DNA from: Thermoanaerobaculia bacterium
GTDB lineage: Bacteria; Acidobacteriota; Thermoanaerobaculia; Multivoradales; UBA5704
Direction of reading: 5' to 3'
Length of the DNA stretch: 31,561 bases
Assembly (NCBI GenBank): GCA_044226625.1
Contig: JBGAGQ010000070.1
Span: 1 to 31,561 of the forward strand
A program made the position numbers and the translations under genes. Every line of letters begins with the position of its first letter. The stretch's first letter is position 1. Shown here in pieces: positions 17,583 through 23,697 of the stretch. Under the pieces are notes generated by a model. It saw only the letters and a program-made list of their open reading frames with translations, was not told the origin of the DNA and ran no database searches.

Positions 17583-20500
17583 TCAGCCCGCATCCCCCAA
17601 GAGCACCCACCCGGCCCAGAACACGGGATCGCGGGTGCGCCGTTCGGCGGCGACCGCGCGCTGGGCCGCGGCGAGCGCCGCTCCCGGCGCCAGGCGGTCG
17701 ATCCAGAGCGCGCGGTAGAACCGCTCCATGAACGCTGCCGCGGCCCGATCGTCGACCGCCCAGAGGCTCGCGACCACCCGCGATGCGCCAGCGTAGAGGA
17801 AGCCGCGCGCGAGGCCCACCAGACCTTCGCCCTGGACCTCTCCGCCGAGGGCCGTCTCGCAACCCGACAGGACGACCAGATCGGCGCCGAGGTTCAAGCG
17901 ATAGACGTCGCCCAGGTGGAGGAACCCCTCGACCGATTCGCCCGCCGGGGTGAAGCGCGAGAGCGCGAGCCCGGACAGGGAGGGCGAGGCGGCGTCGATC
18001 ACGCCGTGGGTCGCGAAGTGGAGCGTGCGGAAATCGGCGAGCCCGGCCGCCCCGGCCGCCGGCTCGAGCGCCGAGCGCGCGGCGTCGAAGCCCACGAGCA
18101 CCGAGCGCGGCTCGCCCGCGCTCTCGGGCGGGGCGAGCGCGAGGATGCGCTCGACCTCGACGGCGCTCGCCGGCAGGCGCTCGAACGGCTCGTCCCTTCG
18201 AGCTCCGGCCGCGGCCCGCGCCGCGGATCCTTGAAGGCGCGGGTCGCTCGCGGCGAAGACCGGATCGGCGAACGCCGCGATCAGACCGCGCGCGGGGGCG
18301 CGCCGCACCGCCCGGTCGCGCACCGCGGCGAGTACGGAGAGGGAGGGCACGAAGGAGATCTGGTGGTCGTCGACCAAAGAACGGTCGCTCCCCGGAACCG
18401 GGAGAGCCGCCCAAGGGAGGTAGGCCAGCGCGCAGTCGGTCTCGATCACGACCCGGCGCCGTCTGAGCTCGGGAGCGACCGGCCCGAGCAGGCGGCGCCC
18501 GAGCGCGCCGAGCCCCTCGGCCTCCGCCACCCGCTCGGCGGGATCGAAACGGCGAAGCGATCGGAACAGGTCGAGCGCCGCCCGCTCGATCTCCGCGCGT
18601 GGGCCGAGGTCGTGGCTCTCGACCTTTCCACCCGCCTCGCCGCGAGAGAGGCTCCAGACCCGGCTCTGCTCGGCTCCGAGTCGGAAGACGAGGACCACCG
18701 TGTCCGGATCGAGCGCCGCGGCGAACGTCTGAGGATCGAGTTCCGGAGGGTCGATCCAGTCGCGCGCGACCGGCGTTTGGGCGCGCGCTTCCGCCTCGAC
18801 CAGATCGAGCTCGATCGCGATTTCGGCCGCCTCCCGCCGCAGCTGGTCGCGCAACGCCGGGTTCGTGCTCGTCGCCGCCCGTTCCGCCTTCGCCGCCAGA
18901 CGCCGTGATAGATCGGCGCGACGCGCGGCGCTCGACGGGTCGATCGCCGCCGCGGGGTCGATCCCTTCCTGGGAGAGCCGCTCGACCAACGCCCGGCCGC
19001 GCGAGCGCTCGACCCGGGCGAGCGCCCGGAGGCTCCAGCCGGCGCCGGGGTGGATGCGATCGAGCGCGAGCGCGGTCTCGATCGCCGCCCCGGACGCGCT
19101 CGCGGCGAGTGTCGAGAAGCTGGTCTGCGCCTCGGCTCCGGGTAGATGCGCCCGCTCGCTCTCGAGCATCCGGAGCGATTCGTCGAACAGTCCCACCGCG
19201 GCCTCGAGGCGCCCTTCGGCACGGGCCAGCCGGCCGAGCGCAGCGAGCGCCTCGGCCTCGCGACGCGGCTGCTCCAACGTGCGAGCCAGGGCGAGCGCTC
19301 GCTCGAACGGCGGCCGCGCTTCCGCGAGCCGATGGGCCGCCAGCTCGAGCTCGCCGAGCGCCCGTTCGGCATCCCCGAGCTGCGCGAGGTCGCCGACCGC
19401 CTCGAGGCGCGCGAGCGCTTCGCCGAACGTGGTACGCGCGTTCTCCGTCTCGCCGCGTGCGGCCTCCGCTTTCGCTCGCGCCGCGAGCGCCATGCCCTCG
19501 CCGCGCGGGTCGCTCACGGCGCGAAACTTCGCGAGCGCGTTCTCGATCCGCGGCCGAGCGGCGTCCGGCCGCCCCTGGTCGAGCGCGGCCAGCGCCAGAT
19601 TGAGCGAGGTCGTGGCCTCTCCCCCGGCGTCTCCCGCTTCCCGCCAGAGAGGTAAAGCGGCCTGCCACTGCACCTCGGCCTCCTCCTGCCGCCCCATCCG
19701 CCGGTAGGCGAGACCGAGGTTGTTCTTCACCCGCGCCTGCCAGCGACGATCGCCGAGCGCCGAGAACTTCGCCGACGCCTCGGCATAGGCGGCGATCGCC
19801 TCACCGAACCGCCCCAGCTCCTGCTCGAGCAGGCCGAGATTGTTGAGCGTTCGCGCGCGCCCGACCTCGTCCCCCACCTTGTCCTCCAGGATGAGCGTCT
19901 GCCGGTAGAGCGAGAGAGCGGCCTCCGGTTCGCCGAGGAGGTCTTCGACCCGGCCGGCGGAGATCGCCGCCGACGCCTCGAGCGCAGGGGCTTGGGCTCG
20001 AGCGAGAGCCGCGCGCGCGAGGACGTAACACGAACGCGCCGCGGACAGGTTCCCCGCGACCGCATCCATGCGGCAGAGGTTGCTCGCCGCGACCGCTTTG
20101 ACGAAAGGATCCGAGGCTCGGTCGGCGAGCTCGGCCGCCTCTTCGAACGAGGCGCGCGCCGCCTCGTTTTCCCCTAGCAACTGATGATCGAGACCGATCT
20201 CGTTGGCGAGAGCTGCTGCAAGCCGACCGTCTAGCGCCGCGACCGGAGCGCGCGCTTCGGTCCCCCAGGAGAGCCCGTCCTTCGGCGAGTCCGTCAATCG
20301 CGCCACGACCGCGAGCGCGTAGAGAGCGCGCGCTTCGCCTCGTGCCTCTCCCGCGGCGCGAAATCCCGCGAGCGCCTCGGAATAGACGGCGAGGGCCTCG
20401 CGCCAGGAGGCGCGGTCGCCCAGCGCGTAGAGCTCGCTCGCCCGATCGAGCGCCTTCCAGGCCGGCACGAGGTCCGCGGCGGAAACGTCCAAGGAGAGGC

Positions 20501-20924
20501 AGACCTCCCCGGCCGGTGCGCCTCTCTCGCGCGCGCGGAGGGCGACCGGTTGCCCGGCGTCGCCGAGGAGAGCCGATTCCTCTCCCTGGCGATCCTGAGG
20601 GCTGTCGAGCCGGTGAGCTTCGGTTGGTGTGGAACCGGGTCGAGCGCCGATCTCGATCTCGACGTCGATCCCACGCTGTTCGACCACCAGCCGAAGGGGA
20701 CCCGTCGACGACGCATCGATCCCGACCGAGATCGAACCGCCCGCTGCAACCTCGCGGCAGGCGCGCTCGCCCGACCGGAGCGAAAGCTCCTGGCTCCGAA
20801 GGGGCGCGGCCGCCGACCAGGGCAGCGCGCACAGGGCGGCGAGCAAGGCGAGTGCCACCCCGCGCGGCAAGAGACCTCTCCACGCGCAAGGCGTCACGGC
20901 ATCGTCGGCGGGATCCGATGTCAT
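17583..20924 (-). CDS. TPR-repeat / CHAT (caspase-like clan CD) protease, 1113 aa
   Basis: N-terminal signal/TM segment (GVALALLAALCALPWSAAA), a beta domain (VVEQRGIDV) and many TPRs (ARTLNNLG, ARVKNNLG). CHAT motifs are YLPWAAL, AAFADPVF, LHFATHG (His), LVVLSGCETALG (Cys), VVASLWAVDD and PVFWAGW. Confidence 0.93.
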   Translation of the reverse strand: MTSDPADDAVTPCAWRGLLPRGVALALLAALCALPWSAAAPLRSQELSLRSGERACREVAAGGSISVGIDASSTGPLRLVVEQRGIDVEIEIGARPGSTPTEAHRLDSPQDRQGEESALLGDAGQPVALRARERGAPAGEVCLSLDVSAADLVPAWKALDRASELYALGDRASWREALAVYSEALAGFRAAGEARGEARALYALAVVARLTDSPKDGLSWGTEARAPVAALDGRLAAALANEIGLDHQLLGENEAARASFEEAAELADRASDPFVKAVAASNLCRMDAVAGNLSAARSCYVLARAALARAQAPALEASAAISAGRVEDLLGEPEAALSLYRQTLILEDKVGDEVGRARTLNNLGLLEQELGRFGEAIAAYAEASAKFSALGDRRWQARVKNNLGLAYRRMGRQEEAEVQWQAALPLWREAGDAGGEATTSLNLALAALDQGRPDAARPRIENALAKFRAVSDPRGEGMALAARAKAEAARGETENARTTFGEALARLEAVGDLAQLGDAERALGELELAAHRLAEARPPFERALALARTLEQPRREAEALAALGRLARAEGRLEAAVGLFDESLRMLESERAHLPGAEAQTSFSTLAASASGAAIETALALDRIHPGAGWSLRALARVERSRGRALVERLSQEGIDPAAAIDPSSAARRADLSRRLAAKAERAATSTNPALRDQLRREAAEIAIELDLVEAEARAQTPVARDWIDPPELDPQTFAAALDPDTVVLVFRLGAEQSRVWSLSRGEAGGKVESHDLGPRAEIERAALDLFRSLRRFDPAERVAEAEGLGALGRRLLGPVAPELRRRRVVIETDCALAYLPWAALPVPGSDRSLVDDHQISFVPSLSVLAAVRDRAVRRAPARGLIAAFADPVFAASDPRLQGSAARAAAGARRDEPFERLPASAVEVERILALAPPESAGEPRSVLVGFDAARSALEPAAGAAGLADFRTLHFATHGVIDAASPSLSGLALSRFTPAGESVEGFLHLGDVYRLNLGADLVVLSGCETALGGEVQGEGLVGLARGFLYAGASRVVASLWAVDDRAAAAFMERFYRALWIDRLAPGAALAAAQRAVAAERRTRDPVFWAGWVLLGDAG

Positions 20925-21095
20925 GGCGGAACCCGGAAAGCATAAACCGCCGCCGAAAAAGTCGCCTCCGAGGTTCGATCGGTGCTCCCATCGAGCCGCC
21001 GCATCGCTCCCGGAGGCACCAAGATTCCGATTTTAAACTATGCTTATTCGTCTTAACCGTCGCGGATTTCGCGTCCGCGGCACTCAGGAGGCCCC

Positions 21096-21284
21096 ATGAA
21101 CAAGCGAGCGAAGAAGTTGCAGCTGAACAGGGAATCTCTGACTCGTATGGATCTCGGCCACGCCGTCGGCGCGAAGACCGCGGAAGAGACGAACTGCATC
21201 GCCTGCAACACCATCGACCGGACCGCCTGCATCACCAACTGCGCCACCTGCGGCAACACCAACTACATCACCTGTCTCTGCTAG
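21096..21284 (+). CDS. Cys/Thr-rich RiPP-like precursor peptide A (62 aa)
   Basis: AGGAGG precedes the ATG. Leader MNKRAKKLQLNRESLTRMDLGHAVGA; core KTAEETNCIACNTIDRTACITNCATCGNTNYITCLC (7 Cys, 8 Thr). Followed by a hairpin. Confidence 0.8.
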   Translation: MNKRAKKLQLNRESLTRMDLGHAVGAKTAEETNCIACNTIDRTACITNCATCGNTNYITCLC

Positions 21285-21294
21285 AAATCCTCGA

Positions 21295-21331
21295 GGGCAG
21301 CTCCCGCGGGAACGCATGGCGGGAGCTGCCC
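21295..21331. terminator. 13-bp-stem hairpin after peptide A, between convergent genes
   Basis: GGGCAGCTCCCGC (21295-21307) / GCGGGAGCTGCCC (21319-21331), a perfect inverted repeat. Confidence 0.7.
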
Positions 21332-21393
21332 GACCTCTTCGGAAGGCGGCGAGGCTCTGCGAACGGAACGGACGCCCGTTCCGGCGGTCGGTC

Positions 21394-21903
21394 CTACTGC
21401 TCGTAGCCCTGGTAATTAGAATTCGAGCAGTTCACGACTACAGTCGAGCCGTTCAGGCTGAGCGACCAGGTCCAGGTCGCCGGATTGTCGTTGTCGTTCG
21501 TCCGCCAGTTGCAGGCAGGCATGACGGCGGACTGGCCGGAGCAAACGGAACCGTCGGTATTGTTCGCTTTGCAGTTCGCCTCTCCCGAGGCGAGCAGGCT
21601 CTGGCAGGAAGAAGAGATCGAGTAGAGAAGATTGGCTGGAAGACAGAGGTAGTTGCCTACGTTCTTCGGCGGAAACGTGGCGCCCGCGCAAGCGGAGCAG
21701 CTCGATTTGCTGCCGGTATTGCAGGAATGAAACGAAGCGCCCACGTCGGTGACGCGGTAGCCGGCCACGATGCTGCTGTTGTTGAACCCGGTCAGGCTGA
21801 GGTTGGCGCAGATGTTCTGGCCGGCCCTGGCGGTGCCGGCGACGAAAATAAAAGAGACGATCGAGACGACCACCGAAAGACCTACCCGCCGCACGCCATT
21901 CAT
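21394..21903 (-). CDS. Secreted Cys-rich protein (10 Cys, Ser/Asn-rich), function unknown
   Basis: AAAGGA precedes the ATG. Sec signal peptide ends TARA-G, and the mature part has 10 Cys. Confidence 0.8.
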   Translation of the reverse strand: MNGVRRVGLSVVVSIVSFIFVAGTARAGQNICANLSLTGFNNSSIVAGYRVTDVGASFHSCNTGSKSSCSACAGATFPPKNVGNYLCLPANLLYSISSSCQSLLASGEANCKANNTDGSVCSGQSAVMPACNWRTNDNDNPATWTWSLSLNGSTVVVNCSNSNYQGYEQ

Positions 21904-22080
21904 ATTTGTTCCTTTCTCGCGAGCGCCGCGCCATTGCAGCGCCGTGACATGCCGTTCGCTTGAGGTAGTGGGACGAGGGCGACCGATCTCGCATCTCGGC
22001 CTAAACCCCAGGCCGGTACCGTCCGTCCGTAGAATCTAGACGGAGAGGACGGAGCTAAATCCCCTCGACGAGGAGACCCA

Positions 22081-22947
22081 ATGGCACGAATCGGGGCGCC
22101 CCATGGGCTTTGGGCCTGCGTCGTCGCGACGTTCACACTCTTCGCACCATCCGCCGCCGGAGGCGCGAGCGGAGCCGACAGTCAGAGACGGATGACCCGC
22201 GATCTTGCCGAGGGACGGCCGATCGTCGTTCATGTGATCGTTGCGCTCTGCGACAACCTGCACCAGGGAATCGTTCCCGTGCCGAAGCATCTGGGTAACG
22301 GCCAGGATCCCGCGTCGAATCTCTATTGGGGCGCCACGTTCGGCGTGCGTTCCTATCTCGCGCGTCAGGCCCGATGGTCGCGGAGGCAGGCATCAATCCC
22401 CGGCTACGGCAGCGTCCTCGATCGAGCAGTTTTCTTCGGCATGATTTCCCGCAACGGAAAGCCGGCGCCTACTTACCTCATCGCCGACGCCTGGGACGGC
22501 GCGGCCATCCGGGCCGCGACCGAGAGGTTCTTGAAAATGGCGAGCGGCGGCTCGCCCGAGCAGGTTTCGTTCCGAAAGGGCACGGAAACGGTGCGGCTCG
22601 CCGCGGGCGGCGCGGCCCATCTGGTCGCTTACGTCGGACATGACGGGCTGATGGATTTCTCCCTGCCGCCGACGCCGGCCCTTTCCGAGCGAAAGGCCGG
22701 GAGCAGCCTCGTGTTGGCCTGCGCGAGCAAGCCCTATTTCCTCGATCGGCTGCGCACCGGCGGCTCGCATCCGCTCCTGCTCACCACCGGCCTGATGGCT
22801 CCCGAGGCGTACACCCTCGACGCGGCCGTCCGCGCCTGGGCGGCAGGGAGCTCCGTGGCCGCGGTACGAGAGGCCGCGGCTCAGGCGTATCAGAAGTTCC
22901 AGAAGACGGGGATCGGCGGCGCGCGCAAGCTGTTCTGGGGTGAGTAG
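22081..22947 (+). CDS. Secreted conserved hypothetical protein with a possible clan-CD His-Cys dyad
   Basis: GAGGAG precedes the ATG and an N-terminal signal-like segment follows. Motifs VALCDN..QGIVPV..LGNG.DP.SNLYWG, AYVGHDGLMD and LVLACAS. Confidence 0.75.
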   Translation: MARIGAPHGLWACVVATFTLFAPSAAGGASGADSQRRMTRDLAEGRPIVVHVIVALCDNLHQGIVPVPKHLGNGQDPASNLYWGATFGVRSYLARQARWSRRQASIPGYGSVLDRAVFFGMISRNGKPAPTYLIADAWDGAAIRAATERFLKMASGGSPEQVSFRKGTETVRLAAGGAAHLVAYVGHDGLMDFSLPPTPALSERKAGSSLVLACASKPYFLDRLRTGGSHPLLLTTGLMAPEAYTLDAAVRAWAAGSSVAAVREAAAQAYQKFQKTGIGGARKLFWGE

Positions 22948-23126
22948 GGAGCGGAGCCGCCCGCCGAGGTTCTAGATGCGCGAGATTCCGGCCCCCGGTA
23001 GATCATCTAACCATTGAAATCGGTCTCGTTATACAAATTGATTTGCACTACTCTTAATCGAGGTCCTTCCCTGCCGCCTTTTCACCGCTGAGGTGAACTC
23101 GGCGGCGTTCCGCGAAAGGAGAACCG

Positions 23127-23297
23127 ATGAAGAGAAAGATCGGCGTTCTGAAGCTTCACCGCGAGACCCTGAAGGCGCTCGAAACCCTCGAGCTCGAACC
23201 GGCGGTCGGCGCCTATACGACGCCGCGTCAATGCCCCTGGAGCGGCTACCAAACCTGTGGAACCTGTGTTCTGACTTGCGGCACCAACCTCTGCTGA
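23127..23297 (+). CDS. Cys/Thr-rich RiPP-like precursor peptide B (56 aa; absent from the ORF track)
   Basis: AAAGGAGA precedes ATG 23127. Translates MKRKIGVLKLHRETLKALETLELEPAVGA-YTTPRQCPWSGYQTCGTCVLTCGTNLC*, sharing LxLxRE[ST]L and AVGA with peptide A. Confidence 0.8.
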   Translation: MKRKIGVLKLHRETLKALETLELEPAVGAYTTPRQCPWSGYQTCGTCVLTCGTNLC

Positions 23298-23318
23298 CTC
23301 GTAGGCGATCTTAGAGAC

Positions 23319-23345
23319 CGCCCGCCGGGATGTTTCCGGCGGGCG
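23319..23345 (+). terminator. Hairpin after peptide B
   Basis: CGCCCGCCGG (23319-23328) / CCGGCGGGCG (23336-23345). Confidence 0.6.
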
Positions 23346-23697
23346 TTGCTGTCGCAGGTCCCCTTGAGCCCCGCCCGCGCACGGCGGCTCCTCTTGCTCG
23401 TACCCCACCTTCAATGCGCCTTCTGTCGGGACGCGGCATTTCGCCATCCGTTCCAAGGTGTGGAAGGCGAGTCACGCCCCGGACAACGACGAACCTAGGC
23501 ACCGCTCGTTATTAAAACTTTTGTTGCTACCCAAATTAACGGCGCGCAATTAATTACCTCTCCCTACAGTGTGAAGACGGCAGGTCCCGACCGGTTCGGC
23601 CGGCACACTCGCCGCCGATCCACTCAACAGGGAGACGCTCAATGAAACTCCAAAGTCTCATTCCAAGTGCTCCTCGTGGAAACTCCTGCAGAAGCCG

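Follow-up and report, generated by a model that had tools for sequence, protein, structure and literature searches.

Based on the analysis of a 31,561-nucleotide stretch of DNA from a Thermoanaerobaculia bacterium (contig JBGAGQ010000070.1, hereafter the window), two small genes in it, here named A and B (Table 1), are probably class I lanthipeptide precursors (LanA) that are processed in trans and belong to a prochlorosin-like, dispersed library of about 55 members, as judged from comparison of sequences. The window is contig C70 of the source genome (G000), a 6.6-Mb assembly of 133 contigs with an overall GC content of 0.677, an estimated completeness of 97.9% and an estimated contamination of 5.5%. 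An earlier note, made from the letters of the window, had proposed that a conserved leader with variable cores means several substrates for one modifier encoded in trans, and the co-occurrence and cluster linkage described below argue for this proposal.

The two open reading frames (ORFs) are present as that note had described them, each with a ribosome-binding site, an AT-rich 5' region and a 3' hairpin, and its account of their leaders and cores matches the sequence. The leader motif is LQLNRESLTRM in A and LKLHRETLKAL in B; both are of the LxLxKx5L type when R is allowed for K and M for the last L, the motif of A differing from that pattern by K to R and by the final L to M. The leaders of A and B both end in AVGA, apparently a cleavage site of the double-glycine type, and, since the leader ends in GG in most orthologs of A and B, AVGA is read as the Gly-Ala (GA) variant of the double-glycine site. 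Cys is present in both cores, and Ser and Thr together are at least as numerous as Cys (8 to 7 in A, 7 to 5 in B). The GC content at codon position 3 (0.87 in A and 0.74 in B) is typical for coding frames of the source genome.

A and B are only two members of a large family. A phmmer search with A and B on the six-frame ORFs of the source genome gave about 30 more small ORFs with a common leader and Cys-rich tails, and a leader-motif search gave 54 ORFs, 46 of which have a short Cys-containing tail. From the leaders of the motif search a hidden Markov model (HMM) was built and run on the same six-frame ORFs, a genome scan of the kind the earlier note had proposed. It recovered 54 ORFs at E<=1.1e-4 (A at 2.7e-9 and B at 3.3e-11) and one further family-like ORF at 0.044; two unrelated ORFs score about 0.05, and the reversed sequences gave no match at E<=0.1. 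The family in the source genome was found to have 55 members over 32 contigs, seven of them on contig C16 alone, so that the earlier count of two was far too low. The two genes had also been called paralogs of each other; both do belong to the family, but they are not nearest paralogs, each being absent from the phmmer list of the other (E<=10).

The consensus of 22 leaders is xxKxxxKLxLxRETLxxLxxxxLxxAxGG, and among these 22 paralogs L8 and L10 are invariant and E13, T14 and L18 are at least 90% conserved. A Shine-Dalgarno-like pentamer lies at -17 to -4 in 49 of the 54 members with a clean start, compared with 1,599 of 20,000 random ATGs (8%). Cys makes up 0.1% of the leader residues and 15.9% of the core residues, and the cores also contain 13.7% Thr and 8.2% Ser (the core cut site was set by a rough rule, which does not affect the Cys counts). 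In all 55 cores Ser plus Thr equals or exceeds Cys, and in 31 of the 55 the number of Cys residues is odd. The NCBIfam model NF038153 (lant_leader_L1a, class I lanthipeptide leader) matches 41 places in the source genome at E<=10, and six members of the leader family score above its cut-off; none of 14 control genomes has a match above the cut-off. Neither A nor B matches any Pfam family.

The statement of the earlier note that no modifying enzyme lies in the window was borne out: Pfam and NCBIfam scans of the window revealed no enzyme for ribosomally synthesised and post-translationally modified peptides, and the enzymes sit on other contigs. The search of the whole genome, which the note had suggested, found one LanB, two LanCs and one C39 peptidase-ABC exporter (PCAT), all outside the window. 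The LanB is a single full-length copy (C93:86992-90363, 1123 aa; PF04738 572 bits, PF14028 229 bits), which matches NisB and other class I dehydratases of solved structure; its neighbouring genes are unrelated. One LanC stands alone (C114:7232-8530), and the other (C4:58628-59944) is located directly 3' of three family precursors (C4:57634, 57956 and 58291). The LanC scores are 141 and 147 bits (PF05147), and both proteins retain AHG, WCYG and CHG, aligned with the NisC motifs, which we take to be the zinc and catalytic residues. The single PCAT (C93:132017-134380) is preceded by a HlyD-like gene; its protease domain keeps DCG and HFVV in an alignment to PCAT1, and the best PDB match of its C39 domain is 6mpz, a double-glycine protease domain. 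In short, the source genome has the separate LanB (PF04738 plus PF14028) and LanC (PF05147) of a class I system.

The linkage that A and B lack is seen in relatives. Among 121 genomes of the order (leader threshold E<=0.001; per-genome counts are minimum values, from at most 67 candidates scored in each), the leader family is present in 26, and a PF04738 match was found in all 26, with at least 349 bits in 24 of them; the weaker cases are G054, with fragments only, and G064, with a partial match. In genomes with only one or two leader genes, the leader gene adjoins LanB: the loci are LanA-LanC-LanB-methyltransferase-GAF protein-PCAT in G006 and G037, HlyD-PCAT-LanA-LanC-LanB in G003, PCAT-LanA-LanB in G055, two LanA genes beside LanB in G089, and LanC, two LanA genes and LanB in G001. 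LanC is present in four of these six loci and PCAT likewise in four, and the precursor shares a cluster with both LanB and LanC in G006, G037, G003 and G001. The LanB of the source genome is 42-50% identical over its full length to the LanBs of these loci, and its PCAT is 55-58% identical to their PCATs; of its LanCs, the C114 protein shows 41-43% identity to relatives and the C4 protein 39-45%. In G107 and G097, both closed genomes, megabases separate dozens of leader genes from LanB, so the dispersal is not an artefact of assembly.

Two loci of the source genome itself combine family precursors with further enzyme genes. In the C4 mini-cluster (L005, G000:C4, 9634-12821), three precursors, two of them with near-identical cores, are followed by a LanC gene and a gene for a YtnP-like lactonase of the metallo-beta-lactamase fold. 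On C84, a PRMT/PrmA-like methyltransferase gene (C84:15753-16988) is flanked by two family precursors (G000:C84:15535-17282). The methyltransferase is 42.6% identical to its counterpart in the G006 and G037 LanA-LanC-LanB clusters and is a possible tailoring enzyme.

A second set comprised 41 genomes of the same family as the source genome (LanC was searched with the C114 protein at E<=1e-20, and the threshold for LanB orthologs was E<=1e-30); related genomes are not independent, and the patterns are given as counts, not as statistics. The leader family occurs in 33 of the 41, with up to 38 copies among those scored, and LanC in exactly these 33. Both are missing from the other eight (namely, G018, G067, G117, G123, G129, G132, G139 and G144), which span five genera. 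A LanB ortholog is missing from seven of the eight, and G132 has two fragments of it, one with a stop codon. A high-identity PCAT ortholog was likewise unseen in seven of the eight; it was also unseen in G125 (89% complete) and G149 (81%), and partial in G122. Each of the six genomes from the window's genus has a single copy of LanB, with 15-38 leader genes among those scored. In a phylum-wide sample of 251 genomes (leader family at E<=1e-5), nine have the leader family, including G299 with one match, and an expansion is recognized in a second, distant genus (15 leader genes in G375 and six in G264). All five distant leader-positive genomes that were tested have one high-scoring LanB (PF04738) each; it lies next to the leader genes in G169 and G171, and in G264 and G375 the leader genes are scattered away from it.

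A and B are also conserved as individual genes. An ortholog of A was found in G048 and orthologs of B in G007, G038 and G048; a large protein collection contains six further relatives of A (73-84% identity), one of which is named as a hypothetical protein from a Thermoanaerobaculia bacterium, and three further relatives of B (74-82% identity). All Cys residues and most core Thr residues are invariant in these orthologs. The pairwise dN/dS values, which are rough because they are based on 55-62 codons, are 0.24 for A and 0.28-0.46 for B, and indicate that both genes are under purifying selection. Metatranscriptome contigs from four runs of one study were placed on positions 20950-23450 of the window: a contig of run X3 covers 21062-21263 (A with its 5' flank), and contigs of runs X3, X4 and X7 cover 23075-23305 (B), with identities of 95-100% to the A/B region. 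Sequences of A and B, or of close relatives, thus occur in RNA libraries. Between A and B there is no cover in X3, X4 and X7 and only one low-depth contig in X12; absence of cover was not used as evidence. The X3 contig that covers B diverges from the window at 23298, right 3' of the stop codon, for 94 letters; the transcript stems from a related strain in which the downstream region differs. Just 3' of the B ortholog in G048 (L063, G048:C17, ~1498) there is a long run, in one frame, of repeats of the form LDHHCSG, which is probably a tandem DNA repeat.

Several observations weigh against the assignment of A and B to the class I lanthipeptides. A scores only 12.9 bits with NF038153 (E 0.096; cut-off 22) and B shows no match to it, so that neither reaches the NCBIfam cut-off. 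Several of the Thr-Cys pairs in the cores are spaced at i+1 or i+2, which is shorter than the ring sizes of well-studied lanthipeptides. A and B share no cluster with LanB or LanC, for LanB, LanC and PCAT are on C93, C114 and C4; 49 of the 55 members, A and B included, have no Lan enzyme inside 10 kb, five being at most 10 kb from a Lan-related gene and one more lying beside a radical SAM gene. The enzymes and the exporter are thus on other contigs of an assembly for which contamination has been estimated as noted above; this concern is countered by the presence of the same set of enzymes and leaders in five genomes of the same genus. High-scoring LanBs also exist in five leader-negative genomes of the order sample (G005, G022, G057, G080 and G116), so LanB does not always need the leader family. 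Finally, the related genomes counted here are non-independent observations, and the RNA-library contigs give neither strand nor ends and cannot exclude carry-over of DNA.

The foremost alternative is that A and B are bacteriocin-like peptides of the double-glycine type, unmodified or only disulfide-bonded, which depend on the C39-ABC exporter only, while LanB and LanC serve just a handful of paralogs linked to them in clusters, such as the three beside LanC on C4. The C-terminal half of the leader is indeed a classical double-glycine signal, the PCAT is intact, the cores are very rich in Cys, and the 49 members distant from any Lan enzyme would fit such a scheme. We nevertheless regard it as unlikely, for the leader family has been lost together with LanC and intact LanB in eight of eight genomes, and G132, which keeps a 56%-identical PCAT, lacks both leader peptides and LanC and retains LanB as fragments only. 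The odd number of Cys residues (seven in A, five in B, and odd in the 31 members counted above) also speaks against it, the balance of Ser plus Thr over Cys holds in every member, and cleavage by a PCAT alone would presumably not need the conserved motif in the N-terminal half of the leader.

It seems quite improbable that some other modifier encoded elsewhere, namely a radical SAM/SPASM, MNIO (DUF692) or YcaO protein, acts on A and B. Candidates of this kind do exist in the source genome (four SPASM proteins, one YcaO and two MNIO), although none of the three families has a match on the window's contig. MNIO was rejected, as its distribution across the 41 genomes does not follow that of the leader family: six of the eight leader-less genomes have it, and seven of the 33 with the leader family lack it, among them genomes that carry 26 and 27 leader peptides. 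A radical SAM/SPASM gene (L035, G000:C17, 4223-5590) lies 170 nucleotides upstream of the family precursor C17:5762, and its best NCBIfam matches, below the cut-offs, are AhbD/NirJ2. Its ortholog exists in only nine of the 41 family genomes, with a leader gene beside it in none of the three relatives checked, and it was rejected as a general modifier. The ortholog is 83-87% identical even between genera, whereas the LanBs of those genera are about 60% identical, which suggests a mobile accessory gene. LanM was set aside as well, since PF13575 has no match in the source genome, a weak result because the control genomes gave none either. So, of the two kinds of enzyme that the earlier note had offered, a lanthipeptide synthetase or a radical SAM enzyme, the comparisons favour the lanthipeptide machinery, and neither radical SAM nor DUF692/MNIO is supported.

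The remaining idea, that A and B are cytoplasmic, metallothionein-like metal-binding peptides or spurious ORFs, can hardly be correct, for against the high Cys content stand a conserved leader with a GG/GA cleavage site that would be superfluous for a cytoplasmic metal binder, the purifying selection and the orthologs in congeners, the Shine-Dalgarno sites of the family and the co-occurrence with LanB and LanC.

If A and B are class I precursors as we propose, each would be translated from its own small transcript, and the LanB on C93 would recognise the leader through its N-terminal half (KLxLxRE[TS]L) and turn Thr and Ser residues of the core into dehydro residues. The stand-alone LanC on C114, the copy on C4, or both, would add the Cys thiols of the core to these residues, giving (methyl)lanthionine rings. 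At the double-glycine signal formed by the C-terminal half of the leader, the C39 domain of the exporter on C93 would cut after GA, and this peptidase-ABC exporter, with its HlyD-like partner, would release the ringed core from the cell. All these steps, from dehydration and ring closure to cleavage and export, are predictions, as is any biological activity of A and B.

The features of A and B in the window are listed in Table 1. The hairpins 3' of the two stop codons are real hairpins (z -3.60 for A, with none of 200 shuffles equally good; z -2.97 for B, with two of 200), and, as they have no T tract, they are not canonical intrinsic terminators; a consensus scan called no T-tract terminator at either gene. 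A consensus promoter scan found no sigma-70-like site at A or B.

Table 1. Positions in the window of genes A and B, their parts and their presumed signals
Feature	Position	Strand	Remarks
Gene A, LanA-like precursor	21096..21284	+	62-aa ORF, ATG start
Leader of A, about residues 1-26	21096-21173	+	
Core of A, 36 aa	21174-21281	+	7 Cys, 8 Thr
Shine-Dalgarno sequence of A, AGGAGG	21086..21091	+	4 nucleotides 5' of the ATG; read from the sequence
AT-rich stretch 5' of A, presumed promoter region	21000..21089	+	GC 0.48
GC-rich hairpin 3' of the A stop, without T tract	21295..21331	+	-32.6 kcal/mol
Gene B, LanA-like precursor	23127..23297	+	56-aa ORF, ATG start
Leader of B, about residues 1-29	23127-23213	+	
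Core of B, 27 aa	23214-23294	+	5 Cys, 6 Thr, 1 Ser
Shine-Dalgarno sequence of B, AAGGAG	23116..23121	+	5 nucleotides 5' of the ATG; read from the sequence
AT-rich stretch 5' of B, presumed promoter region	22980..23069	+	GC 0.38-0.47
GC-rich hairpin 3' of the B stop, without T tract	23319..23345	+	-31.7 kcal/mol

Between A and B, on the opposite strand (21394..21903), the window encodes a 169-aa Cys-rich protein with a signal-peptide-like start, which has no family match in Pfam or NCBIfam. Its ortholog in G007 (75% nucleotide identity) directly adjoins the B ortholog; the protein is a possible partner or immunity protein. Directly upstream of A, also on the opposite strand (17583..20924), lies the gene for a 1113-aa protein with TPR and CHAT (caspase-like) domains, a paralog of which is found near another leader-family precursor on C78. 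Among the neighbours of the 55 precursor genes, only MacB/FtsX permeases (six), ABC ATPases (five) and kinase-TPR proteins recur, and no enzyme family is recurrent. MacB/FtsX genes of the duplicated-permease form number 37 in the source genome, and six of them are within 6 kb of a precursor, where about 2.7 would be expected, given that these zones cover 7.4% of the genome; this enrichment is too weak for a link between permeases and precursors, which was therefore discarded. A 376-aa protein of the thaumatin family is encoded directly upstream of the precursor C93:158790 (L009, G000:C93, 7520-8647).

With regard to the wider meaning of these results, we are on balance inclined to think that a whole family within the Thermoanaerobaculia and, independently, a second acidobacterial genus run a class I combinatorial library, with one LanB, one or two LanCs, a single C39-ABC exporter and from 20 to more than 50 dispersed, hypervariable precursors. 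Among class I systems it would be the first to parallel the prochlorosins, and its LanB and LanC would have to be unusually substrate-tolerant, accepting dozens of Cys/Thr-rich cores that differ widely from one another. A further consequence would be that genome mining based on clusters overlooks most of the precursors in these Acidobacteriota, as with the 49 of 55 here that lie outside 10 kb of any Lan enzyme.

The closest known systems in terms of leader and enzymes are the pinensin-type class I systems of Gram-negative bacteria. According to Walker et al. 2020 (PMC7268733), LxLxKx5L replaces FxLD in class I LanAs of Bacteroidetes, many of these leaders end in Gly-Gly, and the clusters often encode a C39 protease; PMC9680876 describes VdsCB, the LanB and LanC of a Gram-negative cluster, as modifying precursors with double-glycine leaders in E. 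coli. A and B have in common with the pinensin family, Ped15.1/15.2, the thalassomonasins and the viridisins (PMC7268733 and PMC9680876) the leader architecture, the GG-type site and the C39 exporter, and there too LanB and LanC are separate and the cores rich in Ser, Thr and Cys. The pinensin-type precursors, however, are encoded inside the enzyme operon, one to three per cluster, whereas no enzyme is encoded in the window around A and B and about 55 precursors over 32 contigs face one LanB; moreover, those systems belong to Bacteroidota or Gammaproteobacteria and not to Acidobacteriota, and A and B score below the NF038153 cut-off. With the double-glycine exporters PCAT1, LahT and ComA, the system shares a GG/GA site after a hydrophobic pattern in the leader; A and B differ from the peptides of those exporters by an additional conserved N-terminal leader motif and by co-occurrence with LanB and LanC, which point to modification before export.

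In its organisation the system resembles a different group. The prochlorosins and SyncA peptides of marine picocyanobacteria comprise dozens of precursors in which a conserved leader is joined to a hypervariable core, and many of these precursors are encoded far from the single synthetase (PMC10783134, PMC9872173, PMC7268733). The likeness lies in the dispersed precursors, the common leader, the variable cores and the single set of enzymes, here 55 precursors for one LanB. The leader of the prochlorosins and SyncA is of the Nif11 type and their enzyme is the bifunctional LanM, while here the leader is of the LxLxKx5L type and LanB and LanC are separate; a Nif11 leader and LanM are not part of the present system, with the limit already given for the negative PF13575 search. 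The library is built from class I (LanB and LanC), not class II (LanM), parts. With about 55 dispersed genes and one enzyme set, the system of A and B would thus work like the prochlorosin libraries of marine cyanobacteria, by analogy and not as a member of them. No dispersed class I lanthipeptide library was found described in the literature searched, from whose scope supplements and most subscription journals fell outside, and, to our knowledge, natural libraries in which one enzyme set serves many scattered substrates are known for class II lanthipeptides only (ProcM and SyncM). The ProcM and SyncM systems have become tools of peptide engineering, and the leaders and enzymes described here, if they function as proposed, would constitute a new toolkit built from class I parts.

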